Positions 8,038 through 64,000 are shown, numbered from the stretch's first letter. The stretch: 64,000 bases of DNA from Planctomycetaceae bacterium (GCA_020426325.1 JAGQQG010000018.1:1-64000), one strand, 5' to 3'. A program made the numbers and translations. Notes: a model not told the origin generated them from the sequence alone.

Positions 8038-8105
8038 TCTGAGAATCAGGCGAATACCACAAAATGATCAAGCTCTGCATTCGCTGAATTCGCAAGATTC
8101 GTGGT

Positions 8106-11100
8106 TCATTCCACGGTCGACTCGACATCTTCCTTCTTCTCGGCATCTTCCAGGCGCCGCAGAAGTTTGCCGTAGTCTTTGAGACATTGCTCAATCTGCT
8201 TGCCCAGGTTGTGCAGTTCGGCGCGTTGTTCGTCTGAGCGATCCAGGAGCGGTCGCAGCCAGCCTTCCATGAGTTCAAACTGATGCTCCAACACGTTGAG
8301 AACCGTGCGTGGAATGCGATTGACGACAGTGATTCGTTTCGTCTCAGGATCGCTGCTCATCGGTTCGAGCGGCGTTCGCTGGGCGAAGACGGCCGGATCA
8401 TCAGTAGGAATCATGGGCGACGCTGGCGGCTGAGCGGAACCAGCGAGCGCGGGCAACCCGTCCGGCCACTTCATCTCGATCGGCGGCACCTCCAGCGGCG
8501 GCATGTTGATGGGGCGGTCCGCCAGATGACTAATCTTCTCAACGCCATCGGTGAGCCGATGTGACAACTCCGCAAGATGGGTATTCAACCGCTCGGCCTC
8601 TTCGAGCATCCGCTCTTCACGCGCGCTGGCACCATCCTTCGTGGTGAGTTCGACGACACCGTGAGCCAGCGTCTTGCGGATGGATTCGAGTCCGTCCGCG
8701 AAGGTCGTCAGCGTGGCGATGACCTGTCCCGTCTTGTCATCACTGCCGATGCCCCGCAGTTTCACGTTCTGCTTGTACGTTCGCTTGATGTCATCCCAAC
8801 GCTCTCGATCGCTCTGCGATTGAATGCCCATCAGCTCTTTGAACTTGAGCATGTTCGCTTCGGTACCCGAGGTGAGCGTCTGCGCATCGTTCTGATAGCT
8901 GCTGACGATGAGCGTTTGTAACTCTTCGTCGTTCATCACCGGCAGCACCTTCTCCGCGATGCGATTCATGTTACGGTACGACCCCTGCAACAGAAACGGC
9001 GGCTCGGTCCGGTAGTCATCGTGCTGAGCGGCTGATTCGATGTACGCCCGGTTGACCTTGAGAACGACATCACGCACCCTCATGAGTTTCTGCATAACAG
9101 CGACGAACTCGTTGAGTTCTTCGAGCGCATAGGAGCCTTCAAGATCGATTCCCTCACCGGTCGCCTGTTCTCCCCGCAATGCCCTTTGGGCAATCTTGAT
9201 GACCGCGTAGACGTCTTTTTGCGACCGTGCCGCGAGTTTGGCAAGGATCGGATTCGAGGTGAGCGAGTTTTCGAGGTAACTCATCTCGAACGCGTCGGTG
9301 GAGTCGCCAATGATCTCGCCGAGGTTGTAGATGTCAGCCCGGTTGGCCAGCATGTCGGGGATCTGGAACTTCTCGCCGCTCTCCGTGTACGGGTTACCCG
9401 CCATCACGACGGCTACCTTGCGACCTCGGAAGTCGTATGTCTTCGCCTTCCCCTTGTAGACCCCCTCGACCTTGCGTTGGGCATCACACAGGCTGATGAA
9501 CTTCTGTAACAACTCGGTGTTGCAATGCTGAATGTCGTCGAGATAGATCATCACGTTGTCGCCCATCTCGAAGGCGAGGTTGAGCTTCTCGATCTCCTCA
9601 CGGGCTCCCGCATTAGGGGCAGCAGCCGGGTCGAGCGAAGTCACCTCATGTCCAATGGCCGGCCCGTTGATCTTCATGAAGATGATGCCCAGCCGATTGG
9701 CGATGTACTCCATCAGCGTCGTTTTGCCATAACCGGGCGGCGAGATGAGCAGCAGCAGCCCCTGACGATCGGTCCGCTTGTCGGCGCCGGCTGTGCCGAT
9801 TTGTTTCGCGAGGTTGTCGCCGATCAGTGGCAGATAAACCTGATCGATGAGACGGTTCCGCACGAAGGATGTGAGCACGCGTGGCTGAAACTCCGTCAGC
9901 TTCATCTCCTCGCGAGCCTCGTCGACGACACGGGTCTTGAGCTCGTGATACGAACGATACGCTGGCACTGTCAGCCGCTCAAAGCGTTCCAGCCGCTCCA
10001 TGAAACGGTTGAACTGCAAGTTGTACGTACCGCTATCAATGATCGGATGAGTGCCGACGAGATTCTTCAATGTGCACGACATGTCGGTCCCGATGACGGC
10101 ATCACGGTTGATGTCACCGGAGATCAACAAGGCCGCAACCTCGTCAACATGATCTCGCGCAGGCGAGCGGGGGGTGTTAACCCCCTGTCTGTTGACCTGA
10201 TTGCCTTCGTTCAATCCCGGTTCTTCTGACGTCTGTCCGTCTTCCGCGACAGGGGACTGACGTCCTCCGCTCGCCATGGTGACATACGCGCTCACCCAGT
10301 CACGGGCCAGTTCGAAGGCTGCATCCTGATTTCGCTGCACGGCCTTCAATGATTCTGAGAATCGTTCACTGGCACTGAGAGAACTGAGATGTTGATGAAA
10401 ACCGTCGTGCAGTTGAATAGCCGTCCTGGCAATAACGAAGATGTCTCCCGCAGTGCTCAGTTCATGGAACAAGTACGTCGCCGCCTCGTCGAGCAGAGAC
10501 TCGTCCGCGTCCTCGAAGAGACCGGACGTGGCGATGAACTCGCCCAGCATCTCTCGCAGTTCGCGGGTGTACTCCAACTGCTGAGCTGTACCGGGGAACA
10601 GCGTGGCGATTTGACCGAAGCCCGAAAGCTTGGAAGCCATCAGTTTCTTGTCAGCGACCCGTCCGAAGTGATGCCAGTAGACATTCGCAATCGCCCGGGC
10701 ACGGGACGAGTACCGCAACAATCCGCAAGTCGCATCGATATCAAGCAAAGCCCGCAGGATGATCGCCGCATCGTGATCGTGGACCCCCTTGGTGTAACCC
10801 TCGGAATAGCGAGGCCCCATGAACTTCTGGACAAGTGTCAACAATGGCGAGCGGGGGGTGTCAACCCCCTGGTTCTCGCGGTCGCTGCTTGGTGACGACT
10901 CAAGTCCGTCTCGCGTCAGCGAATCTCCCCCGACAGGGGACTGACGTCCCCCGCTCGCCTTGAGCATCTGATAGGCGAGATATTCGGCCCGATACACCTC
11001 GCGGTTTTCGCTGATGACCTCCATGGACCACACGTCGCGGGTGGCGTTGAGGATCTCGGACTCGATGACTTCGAAGAAATCGGTACCGGTGAGATGCAGG

Positions 11101-13797: not shown

Positions 13798-14283
13798 TTA
13801 GTCAAGGTTTTTCACTCGATTCCATTCGCGTTTGAGTATTGCCTGTGCTAAGTCAACTATTCTGTTCCCTAGTGAAATCAAGTCATTTTCAGGTTGTTCG
13901 TACTTTGATTCTGGATTCGCCATTGCTGAGCGGCTTGCTCTCTCCAACAACGCTCTAAGTTGTGCATGGTCTTCTTCGGATGGATTCAGCCTGAGAAGTA
14001 TCCTCGACAGGGTAGTTGCCAAGGAACGATGGAGATCGCCTTTGTTTTCCAGGATGACAGTTGAGGGAGTTGCGTTCTCCAGTGAGAGCTCTCCAGACAA
14101 CACGGCGAGGTTACCAAGATATTCCGAAAGGTCATCTCGAAGTGCATCAATCCAATGCTGTCGAAAAGCGGAGGTCGTAGTGGCTTTGATTTGCTTGCTT
14201 GAGACGTAGAGTGGGACGAGAGCTCCCACGACGAATGCGAGCAACATACCTACTGGTTGAATAATCGCGTCGATATCTTGCAT
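13798..14283 (-). CDS. Hypothetical small membrane-anchored protein (N-terminal TM helix)
   Basis: 161 aa; N-terminal hydrophobic helix VGMLLAFVVGALVPLYV; sits between the flotillin gene and the giant ATPase gene on the same strand with 40-46 bp gaps. Confidence 0.5.
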   Translation of the reverse strand: MQDIDAIIQPVGMLLAFVVGALVPLYVSSKQIKATTTSAFRQHWIDALRDDLSEYLGNLAVLSGELSLENATPSTVILENKGDLHRSLATTLSRILLRLNPSEEDHAQLRALLERASRSAMANPESKYEQPENDLISLGNRIVDLAQAILKREWNRVKNLD

Positions 14284-14323
14284 GTAATCCTCCGTGTCTC
14301 CGCGCCTCCGTGGTGAAACAAAC

Positions 14324-58697: not shown

Positions 58698-60197
58698 TTA
58701 CGGTAACTGCGTCACGCCCATCAGGTAGCGGTCGCATTCTCTTGCGGCTTCGCGGCCTTCGTTGATGGCCCAGACGACGAGGGACTGGCCGCGTCGGCAG
58801 TCTCCCGCGACGAAGACCCCTTCGACGTTGGTCGTGTATTTGCCGTATTCGCCTGTGTACCAACTCATGCCACCCCGGCCTTCGCGAATGTCGACCCCCA
58901 GTTGCTCGGCAGCAGGAGATTCCGGCCCCAGAAAGCCCAAGGCAAGAAACACGAGATCACAGGGCCAATGCTTCTCCGAGCCCTCAACTCGGCAGAATGG
59001 AGGGCCGTTTTCGACAGGCTTCGACCAGTCGACCTGCACTGTGGTGAGTCCGGTCACGTTTCCATCAGTGTCCCCGGTGAACTCGACCGTTTCGATTGAG
59101 AACTCTCGTGGGTCTTCGCCAAACACGGCCTTCCGTTCGGCATGTCCATAGTCAGTGCGGAAGATGCGGGGCCATTGGGGCCAAGGGTTGTTCTCTGCAC
59201 GCTCCGCAGGCGGTTGCGGGACGATCTCGAAGTTGACGAGGCTCTTGCAGCCGTGCCGCATGCTGGTTCCCAGGCAGTCGGTCCCCGTATCCCCTCCACC
59301 GATAACGATCACGTCCTTGCCGGCAGCATTGATGTAGTTGCCATCTTCGTGACGCGAGTCGAGCAGGCTCTTGGTGTTGGCCGTGAGAAACTCCATGGCA
59401 AAGTGAATGCCCTTGAATTCACGGCCGGGGATGGTCAGATCCCGAGGCCGGGTGGAGCCGGTCGCGAGAATGACCGCATCGAACTCATCCTTCAGCTCAT
59501 CCGCCGGCTTGTCCTTGCCGATCTCACAATTCGTGACGAACCTGATGCCTTCCTCTTTCATGAGATTGACACGGCGTTCGACGACGCGCTCTTTCTCCAG
59601 CTTCATGTTGGGGATGCCGTACATCAACAGTCCGCCGATCCGATCGGCACGCTCGAAGACAGTCACTTCGTGCCCTGCGGAGTTGAGCTGCGCGGCAGCA
59701 GCGAGTCCGGCCGGCCCGCTGCCGACGATGGCAACCTTTTTCCCGGTACGCTCATTCGGTGGTTCCGCAACAACCCAGCCTTCCTCGAAGCCGCGATCGA
59801 TGATGTTCCGTTCGATCGTCTTGATGGCAACCGGCGGATCATTGATCCCCAGCGTACACGAGCCTTCACACGGAGCAGGACAGACACGACCGGTGAACTC
59901 CGGAAAATTGTTCGTCTTGTGTAATCGATCGAGGGCTTCGCGCCAGTCGTCGTGATAGACGAGATCATTCCACTCGGGAATCAGGTTATGCACCGGACAG
60001 CCGGCTGCCGCCCCAGCAAGAATGTCCCCCGTGTGACAGAAGGGAATCCCGCAGTCCATACAACGCGCCCCTTGATGCTGGAGCACCTCCAGTTCAATTG
60101 GCTGAATGAACTCATCCCAGTCCTTGATGCGCTCGACCGGATCACGATCAACGGCTGTCTGACGAGGGAACTCTTTGAATCCTGTTGGCTTACCCAT
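58698..60197 (-). CDS. gltD: Glutamate synthase small (beta) subunit
   Basis: [13 protein letters not shown]-terminus, Fe-S Cys clusters ([10 protein letters not shown]; CPAPCEGSC), FAD/NADPH Rossmann motifs ([14 protein letters not shown]; [12 protein letters not shown]). Confidence 0.93.
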
Positions 60198-60237: not shown

Positions 60238-60828
60238 TCAGCCTGGGTGAGGAACTTGTGCAACTTCTACTGTAAAGCGATTCATGAATCTTAGCGAATC
60301 TTCTTCGTCAAACAGCCAGCCAAGCCCGGCTACGGTGATCTCTTGATCACACTTGGTGTGCAAAGTGAAATTCGTTCTGCTTAACTCGTTTATCGTACTA
60401 GCCGCCCCACTGTGTTGGGCAACGGCCGTAATCGTTGGAAGTGCCCTTTGAACGCGACTTACAGGTGTGCCAACGTACCAGTAATCAATCTCCTCGAATC
60501 GAAGTGCACGGAACCCATAGCGAATTCCTTTCTCGTACACATCAAGTTCAGATGGTAACTTGCGTCGGAGAATCCATCGGTATCCTTGGATAATTGCGAT
60601 CAGTGATGGGATGTAAACCAGCCAAAATTGATAGTTTCGCCAGCCACCCCGAATGTCCAAAAACAAGATCACAACACCACTTATCATGAGTGCGAAAAAC
60701 AGAACTGGAATTGCGTTTGGAAGAATGAACGTAAGTAGCCTCTTTAGTCCTCGCTTCTTCTCACAACGAAATTCAAGTTCTCCCAAATACTCTTCAAACT
60801 CATGTGGATGACGACACCAACGAGACAT
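60238..60828 (-). CDS. Hypothetical membrane protein encoded in low-GC insertion
   Basis: ATG at 60828 (track start 60837 is GTG); two TM helices; local GC clearly lower than flanks. Confidence 0.45.
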   Translation of the reverse strand: MSRWCRHPHEFEEYLGELEFRCEKKRGLKRLLTFILPNAIPVLFFALMISGVVILFLDIRGGWRNYQFWLVYIPSLIAIIQGYRWILRRKLPSELDVYEKGIRYGFRALRFEEIDYWYVGTPVSRVQRALPTITAVAQHSGAASTINELSRTNFTLHTKCDQEITVAGLGWLFDEEDSLRFMNRFTVEVAQVPHPG

Positions 60829-60837
60829 GTCTAGCAC

Positions 60838-61004
60838 TGCTCCATCGTCGCCGGTCTGAGTAATCGTACGAAGCGGTAGGTGTGTTGTGACGATAGTATA
60901 TCAGACGGCTGGATGAACTCGTCCCAATCGCCGATTCGCTTGTGCGCATCACGCATGATCGCCGTCTGCCGGGGGAACTCTTTGAATCCTGTTGGTTTAC
61001 CCAT
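60838..61004 (-). pseudogene. Diverged duplicate fragment of the gltD 5' end (first ~33 codons)
   Basis: Minus-strand translation from ATG 61004: [34 protein letters not shown] vs authentic Glt[35 protein letters not shown]; DNA 60905-61006 aligns to 60100-60197; frame ends at TAG after 55 codons. Confidence 0.65.
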
Positions 61005-61015
61005 GTTAGTTTTTT

Positions 61016-61053
61016 ACAACCGCGAATACCGCGAATGGTGCGAATGGATTAGG
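61016..61053. repeat. Left inverted repeat flanking GxxExxY gene (three GCGAATNNN units)
   Basis: ACAACC-GCGAATACC-GCGAATGGT-GCGAATGGA-TTAGG; reverse complement of right repeat. Confidence 0.7.
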
Positions 61054-61069
61054 TGGATACGCCACCACT

Positions 61070-61492
61070 TCATTCGCAATTCACGCGCTGTTCACGGTTC
61101 CTCTCTACAGTTCTTGCAATTCGTTCATACTCAAGTTTCGGATGCCCTGAAAAGTTCACGAGCAGGCCGAGTTGGATTCCGGTCGCTTTGAGATAGTTGT
61201 GAAGTTGTGCCCGGTGTCGATCGTGAAACTCGTTGACGGCTTTAATCTCGACGATGATTCTCTCAAAACAGACAAAGTCCGGCTTGTAGGTTTGTTCGAG
61301 TCGATGGCTTTTGTATTCGATGACGAGTTCCTGTTGAGAGACGAATCGGATACCGCGCAATCGAAACTCAATCTCCAAGGCTTCCTGATAGACCGGTTCA
61401 ACAAATCCTGATCCAAGTTGATTATGAACCTCGAAACATGCTCCCATAATTGCATAGCTCTCATCGGGGAATAGAATCTCGGTCATCGTCAC
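61070..61492 (-). CDS. GxxExxY family protein (PD-(D/E)xK nuclease-like fold)
   Basis: 140 aa; motif GSGFVEPVYQEAL (GxxExxY) and overall match to the family pattern (ESYAIMGACFEVHNQLG...IEYKSHRLEQTYKPDFVCFERIIVEIKAV...QLHNYLKATGIQLGLLVNF). Confidence 0.85.
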   Translation of the reverse strand: MTMTEILFPDESYAIMGACFEVHNQLGSGFVEPVYQEALEIEFRLRGIRFVSQQELVIEYKSHRLEQTYKPDFVCFERIIVEIKAVNEFHDRHRAQLHNYLKATGIQLGLLVNFSGHPKLEYERIARTVERNREQRVNCE

Positions 61493-61556
61493 AACTCAGA
61501 TTCTCATGAACCGCGAGTTTCACGAATGAGGCGAATTGAAAGATTTGGCGCCACAA

Positions 61557-61589
61557 CCTATTCGCACCATTCGCACCATTCGCGGTTGT
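61557..61589. repeat. Right inverted repeat flanking GxxExxY gene
   Basis: CCTATTCGC-ACCATTCGC-ACCATTCGC-GGTTGT = reverse complement of ACAACC-GCGAATGGT-GCGAATGGT-GCGAATAGG; pairs with 61016-61053. Confidence 0.7.
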
Positions 61590-61600
61590 CAATCATTTTC

Positions 61601-64000
61601 TCACCGGCTCTCCGCCATTTCTGGTGACTCCTCGCCAGCGGCCTCGGCCATCGCTGCGGCTTTGAGTTCGTCCAGCGACTTCTTGTATTCGCGGGGCATA
61701 ACCTGGACGAACTTGGCCGACTCGACATCCCAGTCTTCGATGATGGATTTGGCAATCGCAGAGCCGGTATAGATGTGATGCTTCTCGACCAGTTCCTTCA
61801 ATTCTGCGACGTAGTCCGGATCATCGACTTTGGCGAGCGGGATGAGGTCAACAAGTTCAAGATTACAGTTCACACGAAGCTGATCGAGACTGTCGGTGTA
61901 GACGTAGGCGACTCCGCCAGACATACCTGCCGCAAAGTTTCGGCCTGTCGGGCCAAGAATCACGACCCGACCACCGGTCATGTACTCGCAGCCGTGATCG
62001 CCGACCCCTTCCACGACTGCCTTGGCACCGCTGTTCCGCACGCAGAACCGCTCTGCGGCCCGACCACGGAAGTATGCTTCCCCGGATGTGGCACCATACA
62101 GGGCCACGTTGCCAATCAGGATGTTCTCACGAGGAACAAACGTGCTTGACTCGTGCGGATGGACGATCAGTTTGCCCCCCGACAGACCTTTCCCCGCGTA
62201 GTCATTGGCGTCGCCGATGACTTCGATCGTTACGCCATTAACTGCCCATGCCGCGACCGACTGTCCGGCGGAACCACGGGTGACGATGCGGATCGTGTCC
62301 TCCGGGAGGCCTTGCGGACCCCACTTCTTGCTGACTTCGTGAGACAGAGTCGTCCCGAAGGCGCGGTCGATGTTCTGGATGTCGATTTCCAGTTTGATTT
62401 TCTCCCCCTTCTCGATCGCCTCACGGGCTTGCGGGATGAGAAATGTCTGATCGAGCGTCTGATCGAGACCATGATTCTGAGCCTGCTGACAGTAAGTGCC
62501 AGCATCGGTGTAACTGCTGATCGCACGCGTCAGGACGAGCGACAGGTCGAGGTGTCGGGCCTTCCAGTGATCGATCGAGGAGTTCCACTCCAGCAGGTCA
62601 GCACGCCCGACCATTTCGTTGATCTTGCGGAAGCCGAGCTGAGCCATGATCGTGCGCAAGTCCTCTGCAACCATGAAGAGGTAGTTGATGACATGCTCCG
62701 GTTGCCCCTTGAACTTCGCGCGAAGTTCGGGATCCTGCGTGGCGACTCCCACAGGGCAGGTGTTGAGATGGCATTTCCGCATCATGATACAACCGAGCGT
62801 GATCAGAGGTGCGGTTGCTAAGCCGAACTCCTCAGCTCCGAGCAGACACGCAATCGCCACGTCACGACCGGTGCGAATCTGACCATCGGTTTCCAGTTTT
62901 ACGCGGCTTCGAAGATCGTTCTTGACGAGCGTCTGATGCGTCTCCGCAATGCCCAGTTCCCACGGGAGGCCGGCATGCTTGATGGACGTCAGCGGGGAAG
63001 CGCCGGTTCCGCCGCCATCACCCGAGATCAGGATCTTGTCTGCGTGTCCTTTGGCAACTCCGGCTGCGATCGTGCCGACTCCGACTTCCGACACAAGCTT
63101 GACGCTGATGCCTGCTGACGGATTGGCATTCTTGAGGTCGAAGATCAGCTGTGCCAGGTCTTCGATGGAGTAGATGTCGTGATGCGGCGGTGGGCTGATG
63201 AGTCCGACGCCGGGAGTCGAGTTGCGAGTCGCGGCGATGATCTTGTCGACCTTGTGACCGGGCAATTCCCCCCCCTCGCCGGGCTTCGCTCCCTGGGCGA
63301 TCTTGATCTGCAACTCATCCGCATTCGTGAGATACCACGAGGAGACGCCGAACCGACCGCTGGCGACCTGCTTGATCGCAGAGCGGCGATTGTCCGCGAA
63401 GCGTTCGTAATTCTCGCCCCCCTCTCCCGTGTTGGACTTGCCGCCGATCTGATTCATCGCGACAGCCAGCGACTCGTGAGCTTCGGCCGAGATGGAGCCG
63501 TAACTCATGGCACCGGTGCAGAACCGCTTGACGATCTTCTCCGCCGTCTCAACTTCATCGAGCGGGACCGGTGTTGTTCCCGTCTTGAACTGCATCAAGC
63601 CGCGGAGCGTACCTTGTCGGTGATCGCTCTCATTCATCAGCTTGGCAAAGCGATCATAGGCAGACTTATCGCCCGCGCGAGCTGCCTGCTGAATCTCGGC
63701 AATCGTGAACGGGTTCCAGCCGTGTTTCTCACCGCCGTGTCGCCAGTGAACAATCCCGTCATTTTGCAGGACGGGCAAACGATGGCTTTCGTGGCGAGCG
63801 GGGAAACCCTGCTCGTGACGACGGAGATGTTCCTCAGCGAGGATCTCGAAATCGATGCCTTTAATTCGACTTGCGGTGCCAGTGAAACACTTGTCGATGA
63901 TGTCACTGGAGAGACCGAGTGCCTCAAAAATCTGCGCGCCCTTATACGAGGCGAGTGTCGAGATCCCCATCTTGCCCATGACCTTGAGCATGCCTTTACG
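61601..64000 (-). CDS. gltB: Glutamate synthase large (alpha) subunit, C-terminal ~800 aa; gene continues past window end
   Basis: FMN-binding/TIM-barrel domain and C-terminal GXGXG beta-helix domain motifs of GltB; open frame runs to the window edge. Confidence 0.92.

Follow-up and report, generated by a model that had tools for sequence, protein, structure and literature searches.

A predicted GxxExxY nuclease gene framed by inverted arrays of short repeated sites: a candidate nuclease-plus-hairpin element in a planctomycete gltB-gltD operon

The gene and its inverted arms

The stretch of DNA analyzed here (hereafter the window) comprises 64,000 nucleotides (nt) from a Planctomycetaceae bacterium (GCA_020426325.1 JAGQQG010000018.1:1-64000), and all coordinates are given within it. 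Between gltB and gltD, the genes for the glutamate synthase subunits, lies a gene of the GxxExxY family which encodes a predicted small PD-(D/E)xK nuclease and is enclosed by two inverted arms, each an array of three repeated sites. An earlier note on this DNA had described a pair of inverted repeats of 33 base pairs (bp), made of triplicated units and bracketing a segment that holds only the GxxExxY open reading frame (ORF), and had suggested a compact mobile cassette. The unit consists of the following features:

61013..61050, outer arm beside a stub copy of gltD (the 3' arm in gene orientation), ACAACC followed by three GCGAAT-type units
61070..61486, minus strand, GxxExxY protein gene, encoding 138 amino acids (aa) if translation starts at the ATG at 61486; a GTG at 61492 is an alternative start
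61071..61099, degenerate inner partner in the downstream hairpin, overlapping the ORF at its 3' end
61509..61536, degenerate inner arm, AACCGCGAGTTTCACGAATGAGGCGAAT, which pairs with the outer arm to give the upstream hairpin 61509-61587
61555..61592, outer arm on the gltB side, beside the stop codon (the 5' arm in gene orientation), reading on the complementary strand as ACAACC followed by three units of GCGAAT+NNN

The outer arms form an inverted repeat of 38 nt (61013-61050 / 61555-61592) that is 84% complementary, with the arms 504 nt apart and a perfect core of 20 nt (61028-61047 / 61567-61586). The left arm reads ACAACC GCGAATACC GCGAATGGT GCGAATGGA and the right arm is the reverse complement of ACAACC GCGAATGGT GCGAATGGT GCGAATAGG, each outer arm being ACAACC plus three units of GCGAAT and 3 nt. 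The inverted triplicate repeats are thus real, with all six GCGAAT cores exact and departures from perfect repetition in two of the 3-nt spacers. When up to 3 mismatches are allowed, the window contains 5 occurrences of GCGAATGGTGCGAATGG, compared to 0.21 expected from shuffles, and four of the five occurrences are at the cassette; a 6-mer repeated three times at an 8-10-nt period is found in the 64 kb only at the two outer arms. Near each outer arm there is also a degenerate inverted partner (61071-61099, 72%, and 61509-61536, 75%), the second of which matches the left outer arm directly at 77%. The description of a single inverted-repeat pair is therefore right for the outer pair and incomplete for the locus, where the gene is flanked by two hairpins of about 80 nt in the same orientation, with decaying inner arms. 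Both hairpins fold as DNA better than shuffled sequences (z = -2.4 to -5.3), the upstream one with z = -3.5 on the plus strand and -2.4 on the minus strand, and the downstream one with z = -4.1 and -5.3, respectively. Given that two independent assemblies of the same organism (L001 and L002, a Planctomycetaceae metagenome-assembled genome) carry the identical arm structure, it is not an assembly artefact.

The only ORF between the arms that matches the family is 61070-61486/61492 on the minus strand, as the earlier note had stated, with highly significant matches to PF13366 (E=1.6e-41, 141.7 bits against a curated cut-off of 22) and TIGR04256 (E=1.1e-41, 141.8 bits against 35). The family domain extends to residue 125 of the 140-aa ORF with the GTG start (123 of the 138-aa product), and the final ~15 codons extend into the downstream hairpin. 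The exact product is present in other assemblies of the same organism (P0001), and more than 6,400 relatives are found at E <= 1e-10. Among 30 relatives, G27-F-V-E30-P-V-Y33, P69-D70, E80-I-K82 and Q94...Y98 are invariant; a QxxxY motif is typical of the RecB/Cas4/lambda-exonuclease branch. The nearest solved folds identified by Foldseek for an AlphaFold2 model (predicted local distance difference test score, pLDDT, 87) are lambda exonuclease, Cas4 (SSO0001), RecE, tRNA-splicing endonuclease and Hjc, all at the generic level of the PD-(D/E)xK fold, and neither solved structures nor the fold search yielded a specific functional relative beyond such generic matches. Sequence similarity to T7 endonuclease I and Cas4 is weak, and searches with PADLOC and PHROGs gave nothing beyond weak Cas4 and endonuclease matches. 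Because E30, D70, E80, K82 and Q94xxxY98 are invariant and the fold resembles these enzymes, the GxxExxY protein is likely to be a minimal PD-(D/E)xK nuclease active on DNA. In a 2012 survey of the PD-(D/E)xK superfamily, the function of the family is given as 'Unknown' (PMC3424549).

Gene and arms at the gltB-gltD site of relatives

The closest relatives of the protein (P0002, 87% identical, and P0003, 77%) are both encoded between gltB and gltD. In the orthologous cassettes L003 and L004, clean hairpins are present on both sides, with arms of 28-30 nt and loops of 10-29 nt, and these include intact arms orthologous to the degenerate inner arms in the window. Among the three orthologues, the synonymous distance (dS) is 1.2-2.4 and the ratio of nonsynonymous to synonymous distances (dN/dS) 0.05-0.07. 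In their three-way alignment, the coding part of the GxxExxY gene is as constrained as the start of gltD, and the cores CGAAT and AACCGCG are invariant in the intact arms, the 3-4-nt spacers and the loops varying freely; loss of cores has begun only in inner arms, in one lineage or another. Given the saturated dS, the low dN/dS and the invariant cores, the cassette at this site is old, vertically inherited and functional, under strong purifying selection, and the arms are selected for their sequence, not for pairing alone.

Gene and arms are both present at the gltB-gltD site in the window, L003, L004 and L146. In L146, whose gltD is 83.5% identical to that of the window, an arm of the CGGAA type directly follows the gltB stop codon, and after 290 nt come an inverted arm, a GxxExxY pseudogene (1393-1758), a further arm and gltD; the pseudogene is about 60% identical to the window gene and has an in-frame stop, with the arms intact. 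Judging from this sequence, gene type and arm type were exchanged together. We compared five relatives with no GxxExxY gene between gltB and gltD (L206-L210, gltD 75-86% identical), and none of the five has arms there. The spacer is empty and 53 nt long in L208; it consists of 226-297 nt of non-coding DNA in L207 and L210, two unknown small ORFs in L206 and a DUF433 plus DUF5615/PIN-like toxin-antitoxin pair in L209, and a more distant Kiritimatiellae genome has an empty spacer of 55 nt. Since the gene-free relatives are armless and L146 differs in both gene and arm type, the arms travel with the gene, which is the best evidence in these comparisons for gain, loss or replacement of the unit.

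The same comparison bears on the alternative that the repeat is fortuitous or is a terminator or attenuator of gltB unrelated to the gene; a gltB terminator had been raised in the earlier note itself. The arms do lie in the gltB-gltD spacer, a possible place for such a signal, but an inverted repeat of 20 nt perfect and 38 nt imperfect is far beyond chance, there is no run of T after the stems, and no terminator-like site was detected. As relatives without the gene are also without arms, the terminator reading fails; moreover, the same arms flank genes of the family at other loci. We give this explanation practically no credence, and an intrinsic gltB terminator was rejected outright on the lack of a terminator-like site and the absence of arms in L206-L210.

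The arms frame GxxExxY genes across the family

A scan of metagenomes with an alignment of relatives yielded 80 loci with 83 GxxExxY genes, of which 74 loci had enough flanking sequence to be searched for a bracket, defined as an ungapped inverted repeat that links the two flanks with a score of at least 14. A bracket was present at 66 of these 74 loci and in none of 74 shuffled controls (maximum score 12), which settles in the affirmative whether other copies have similar flanks, a check that the earlier note had proposed. Typically, the upstream arm starts with (A/C)CC(A/G)CG and comprises three units of 8-10 nt, with the reverse complement downstream; the start codon follows the plus arm at a distance of 10-80 nt, and the minus arm in turn follows the stop codon at 10-80 nt. 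The core differs by lineage (CGAAT, CGAAA, CGGAA, CGGAT or GCTAAA) and is uniform within a locus. The bracket is also found in copies from Bacteroidota (L060, L035), and a copy on a Treponema plasmid, 50% identical, has a looser, degenerate one. Most often the order is arm-gene-arm; L131 and L186 resemble the window in having a complete hairpin on either side, and L184, L189 and L134 show arm-gene-arm-loop-arm. Cassettes are located inside core operons, between consecutive subunit genes (gltB and gltD, nuoK and nuoL, an ABC ATPase and an FtsX-type permease); between co-directional neighbors, the gene is co-oriented with them in 29 cases against 3. On this comparative evidence, the frame of arms is a hallmark across the GxxExxY family, and gene and arms behave as one unit at many unrelated sites in several phyla.

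Some loci show more complex arrangements. In L102 (5143-7312), arms bracket a pair of C5 DNA methyltransferase and HNH endonuclease genes, and L035 (1700-4260) contains, in order, a hairpin, a GxxExxY gene, an arm, a UPF0175/DUF3368 toxin-antitoxin pair, a hairpin and a second GxxExxY gene; therefore, other selfish modules may share these arms. L034 has a run of at least eight tandem ACCGCGAAT 9-mers (at about 2800-2900), and L132 (670-1240) a tandem partial duplication, with an arm and the first 44 GxxExxY codons followed by an arm and the full gene.

Gene-less hairpins of the same type

A strict variant of the arm, AACCGCGAAT-N4-CGAAT-N4-CGAAT, was searched for in a set of species-representative genomes. 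Among the matches listed, it occurs in more than 120 stretches from about ten phyla, mainly in Planctomycetota, Verrucomicrobiota, Kiritimatiellia, Lentisphaerae, Bacteroidota, Armatimonadota, Chloroflexota and Acidobacteriota, in a few cases in other phyla, and at no fewer than 15 loci in the complete genome of Planctomicrobium sp. SH661. Most of the listed loci are short arm-loop-arm hairpins with loops of 1-150 nt and no gene. They occur in all intergenic orientations, including between convergent and between divergent genes, and with a crude ORF caller, no preference for a context such as 3' ends or convergent genes was detected beyond background. No consistent family of neighbor genes emerged, the clusters found being merely translations of the repeats themselves. 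Two gene-less elements are present in the window:

8040..8106, half-decayed CGAAT-type hairpin, right arm ATTCGCTGAATTCGCAAGATTCGTGGTT (arm at 8079), between convergent ORFs
14283..14312, arm with three CTCCG (CGGAG-type) that ends in GTGGTG, just upstream of an ORF start

Where a contig carries a GxxExxY gene and also gene-less arms at a distance of more than 400 nt from it, the core type is shared in 12 of 13 cases, compared to a mean of 5.4 under permutation, where 12 was reached in 5 of 2000 trials.

In Marinilabiliaceae bacterium JC017 (L009, L024, L027, L029, L048, L051, L059, L079), the hairpin belongs to a longer repeat, about 250 nt in length and present in at least 10 copies, with some 55 nt conserved on one side and some 80 nt on the other. 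Across 158 arms (L005-L124), C is depleted at positions -8 to -2 outside AACC (4-8% against a background of 28%), T is enriched just outside the arms, and a purine (G or A) precedes each CGAAT core in about 85-98% of the arms; given these flanking base preferences, the recognized unit may be slightly longer than the core.

The abundance of such hairpins is compatible with a scenario in which the hairpins came first, as an independent repeat family with a host function or served by another enzyme, and the nuclease cuts hairpins or cruciforms, so that its gene is copied into the loop by repair. Homing of this kind would account for the location of the gene inside a hairpin: the gene sits mostly exactly at the place of the loop, with the arms very near its start and stop codons, and A-gene-A-loop-A' arrangements exist (L184, L189, L134). 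Hairpins without the gene are far more numerous than those with it and are spread over more lineages, no target-site duplications are seen, and the protein is weakly similar to T7 endonuclease I, which resolves junctions. Against this, none of the five gene-free relatives has a hairpin at the gltB-gltD site, the arm type in L146 changed along with the gene type, and arms of about 28 nt with mismatched spacers would provide poor homology for repair. We consider this scenario unlikely, though the likeliest of the alternatives to the reading preferred below.

DNA sites or an RNA helix

The arms could instead act in RNA, as a long stem around the ORF in the operon transcript that forms an RNase III site or an insulator, in the manner of the intervening sequences of 23S rRNA. 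The co-orientation of the gene with its neighbors (29 to 3) is compatible with such a role, as is the fact that no promoter-like or terminator-like site was found next to the gene in the window region. In the minimum-free-energy fold of a 611-nt RNA, the outer arms pair (z = -4.3), and spacer positions agree more often between the two arms of one locus than between arms of different loci (0.70 vs 0.49). Evidence against a helix is that the two least constrained spacer positions match between the arms in only about 50-60% of cases. Selection on a helix in RNA is also expected to leave an excess of G.U pairs and covariation. At the 136 mismatched positions in 58 brackets, sense-strand G.U is not in excess (30, compared to 38 A.C) and half of the mismatches are transversions; across the orthologues, the three-way alignment contains no compensatory changes, the cores remaining unchanged over saturated divergence and the spacers changing uncompensated. 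With neither G.U excess nor covariation, the constraint appears to be on the DNA sequence and not on an RNA helix. Furthermore, gene-less hairpins are found in all intergenic orientations, a single core sequence is fixed within each genome, a uniformity that a plain helix would not need, and no Rfam family was matched to the elements, the only match being a tRNA (the region searched at an E-value threshold, eight hairpin loci at the gathering threshold). An RNA role is accordingly rather improbable. The constraint on the arms is strand-symmetric and sequence-specific, a signature that would indicate a DNA-binding factor reading three phased sites per arm.

Such a factor need not be involved in movement. 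The arms might be operators, with the GxxExxY protein or a host regulator binding both three-site arrays, looping out the DNA and repressing the gene, and the sequence-specific, strand-symmetric, periodic sites on both sides of a gene under strong purifying selection speak in favor of this explanation. It leaves unexplained the hundreds of gene-less hairpins and the joint arrival of gene and arms at unrelated sites within operons, and there is no promoter in or between the arms to regulate, which makes it, in our estimate, distinctly improbable.

A proposed selfish or domesticated nuclease cassette

The reading that we prefer, with a probability of roughly 45%, is that the unit is a selfish or by now domesticated nuclease cassette, the ends of which are arrays of binding sites for its own product and the gene-less hairpins its partners. 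Under this model, the unit would be a gene for a Cas4/RecB-like PD-(D/E)xK nuclease of about 125 aa enclosed by two inverted arms, each with three 9-bp sites that have the core (R)CGAAT here and CGAAA or CGGAA elsewhere and start with (A/C)CC(A/G)CG. The nuclease would recognize the repeated cores on DNA, three sites per arm, and the paired arms would define the ends of the unit. Gene-less arm-loop-arm hairpins in the same genomes would be partner elements that depend on the nuclease in trans, analogous to REPINs (doublets of repetitive extragenic palindromic, REP, sequences that form hairpins) with their REP-associated tyrosine transposase (RAYT), or to miniature inverted-repeat transposable elements (MITEs) with their parent element. 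The gene would have no promoter of its own and be read as part of the host operon, here gltB-gltD. Observed are the association of gene and arms, its breadth, joint gain and loss of the arms with the gene, selection on gene and cores, and the agreement of core type within genomes; that the GxxExxY protein binds the cores and cuts there, and so moves or maintains the unit, we infer.

Several findings weigh against this interpretation. No act of movement has been seen: direct repeats that would mark target-site duplication are missing outside the arms, both here and in the flanks of about 80 brackets inspected elsewhere, no excision junction was seen, and no near-identical second copy of the cassette is present within the 64-kb window. 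We know of no strand-transfer activity in a 125-aa nuclease. Long residence at one site under purifying selection fits a domesticated or host-useful gene as well as a selfish one. The link between protein cluster and core type is significant but weak (64% vs 60% identity) and is not decisive for recognition. The family is rare on plasmids (8 of 72,556 records), and viral contigs contain a single close relative; a relaxed arm pattern has at least 120 matches in viral contigs, which are uninformative since some tens are expected by chance by our own estimate. Among the matches listed for the strict arm, a GxxExxY gene lies at the arm in only 2 of 120 loci found by the motif, and no gene remnants were detected in the loops of gene-less hairpins. 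In Planctomicrobium the hairpins have arms in common but not loops and, with only the arms shared, are not recent copies of one master element. Of the compact mobile cassette proposed in the earlier note, what stands is a unit of gene and arms that recurs at many unrelated sites and in several phyla; the copy in the window is an old, vertically inherited resident.

A broader version of the model is offered tentatively, as the less probable part of it. GxxExxY nucleases and their arrays of 9-bp units, three per arm, might constitute phylum-spanning replicators, an independent PD-(D/E)xK-based counterpart of REPIN-RAYT systems. The nuclease would use a periodic DNA code, with a core (CGAAT, CGAAA or CGGAA) that differs between genomes, to spread or maintain the cassette and its gene-less hairpins within core operons, among others in Planctomycetota, Verrucomicrobiota, Bacteroidota and Acidobacteriota.

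Neighboring genes in the window

The cassette is surrounded by genes on the same strand:

61601..63991, minus strand, 3' part of gltB (glutamate synthase large subunit), its stop 8 nt from the end of the arm at 61592 and 11 nt from the ACAACC terminus
60906..61004, minus strand, stub copy of the 5' end of gltD, 33 codons, directly after the cassette, with 81% nt identity to 60099-60197
60238..60837, minus strand, ORFan of 199 aa with two transmembrane segments, between the stub and the intact gltD
58698..60197, minus strand, intact gltD (glutamate synthase small subunit)

The search for relatives of the 199-aa ORFan returned none other than itself. The stub and the ORFan after it look like the outcome of an insertion of foreign DNA anchored by one-sided homology in gltD. 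A similar gltD stub is present in L003, where the insert is a toxin-antitoxin pair of a ribbon-helix-helix (RHH) and a PIN protein, without similarity to the insert in the window. The gltB-gltD spacer of Planctomycetaceae is a hot spot for small inserts.

Comparison with known systems

REPIN-RAYT systems, in which REP doublets that form hairpins are associated with a RAYT (Bertels & Rainey 2011, PMC3116915; PMC5581495; bioRxiv 10.1101/2021.07.10.451892), are the closest analogue, differing in enzyme class and in repeat grammar. In both cases, inverted copies or hairpins of a short palindromic repeat lie on either side of a nuclease-type gene, these hairpins also occur without the gene at dispersed intergenic positions, and the gene is inherited vertically over long times under purifying selection, with a genome-specific repeat type. 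The enzyme here is a 125-aa PD-(D/E)xK nuclease with no match to Y1 transposases, whereas RAYTs are HUH/Y1 transposases; the arms consist of three 9-bp units, whereas REPs carry GTAG or CGTC tags; several GxxExxY genes, each with arms, can be present on one contig (L139, L035), whereas RAYTs are typically single-copy; and the family is centered on Planctomycetota, Verrucomicrobiota, Bacteroidota and Acidobacteriota, unlike the proteobacterial REPIN-RAYT systems.

Insertion sequences with terminal inverted repeats (TIRs) likewise have a single gene between inverted ends that carry repeated sites, and MITEs resemble the gene-less hairpins as short versions that consist of the two ends only, some of them multi-copy. 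In contrast to TIR elements, the GxxExxY units lack target-site duplications and any DDE, Y1/HUH, serine or tyrosine transposase, the sole ORF being that of the PD-(D/E)xK protein; copies within a genome do not appear to be near-identical, with no second copy in the window, and the copy present there is ancient and fixed in place. With IS200/IS605 elements the unit shares a same-orientation hairpin at each end (in the window, L003, L004, L131 and L186), the lack of target duplication and a very small size, but there is no TnpA(Y1) or TnpB, the arms are mutually inverted, and most members of the family have one arm per side instead of two local hairpins.

Similar to integron cassettes with their attC sites, these are small promoterless genes co-oriented with the surrounding transcription and separated by imperfect palindromes, and toxin-antitoxin modules are found as neighbors (L003, L035). 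Unlike in attC, there are no R''/R' core sites (RYYYAAC / GTTRRRY), the arms ending in ACAACC... and ...GGTTGT(C/A)AA with variable bases outside the AACC/GGTT termini across 158 arms, and the arms keep their sequence across phyla, whereas what attC sites conserve is their structure. There is also no integrase nearby, no recombinase family was matched among the ORFs scanned, and the cassettes are single and located inside housekeeping operons. An attC reading was rejected on the absence of R''/R' core sites and on the neighbors, namely gltB, the gltD stub, the ORFan and gltD. Each of the four groups, TIR transposons, IS200/IS605, REPIN-RAYT and integrons, has a defining feature that the cassette was found to lack, and it is therefore placed outside all of them.

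Two further comparisons concern the enzyme. Free-standing homing endonuclease genes of phages (seg, mob) are also small nuclease genes inserted between conserved neighbors, with which they are co-transcribed, and they vary in presence among relatives; their products are instead GIY-YIG or HNH enzymes with targets in the neighboring gene, and they have neither a frame of repeat arrays nor gene-less hairpins. With the Cas4/RecB/lambda-exonuclease clade the GxxExxY protein has in common the core fold and the D...ExK and QxxxY catalytic motifs, but it is half the size, lacks the cysteines of the Fe-S cluster, has no CRISPR or recombination partners nearby and possesses its own N-terminal GxxExxY helix pair.

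Implications

Full-text literature searches for GxxExxY, PDDEXK_3, PF13366, TIGR04256 and the arm sequences, which did not cover the curated NCBI family description, returned no account of the flanks, and the papers matched by the arm sequences were unrelated, mostly on small RNAs. A genetic element composed of a nuclease and hairpins of this type is thus apparently undescribed.

For genome annotation, the arms provide a simple marker of the cassette and can flag inserts in operons such as gltBD and nuo. For the very large PF13366/TIGR04256 family, the arm frame offers a concrete, testable substrate, a 9-bp array of the CGAAT type, and the protein may turn out to be a compact sequence-reading nuclease. 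The occurrence of gene-less arms in many phyla suggests a plausible biology for the family, that of a selfish or domesticated nuclease with hairpin partners. If this interpretation is correct, it would add a second enzyme class to the long-lived intragenomic replicators of the REPIN/RAYT type and would explain a class of conserved intergenic palindromes in genomes of the PVC (Planctomycetes-Verrucomicrobia-Chlamydiae) group and Bacteroidota.

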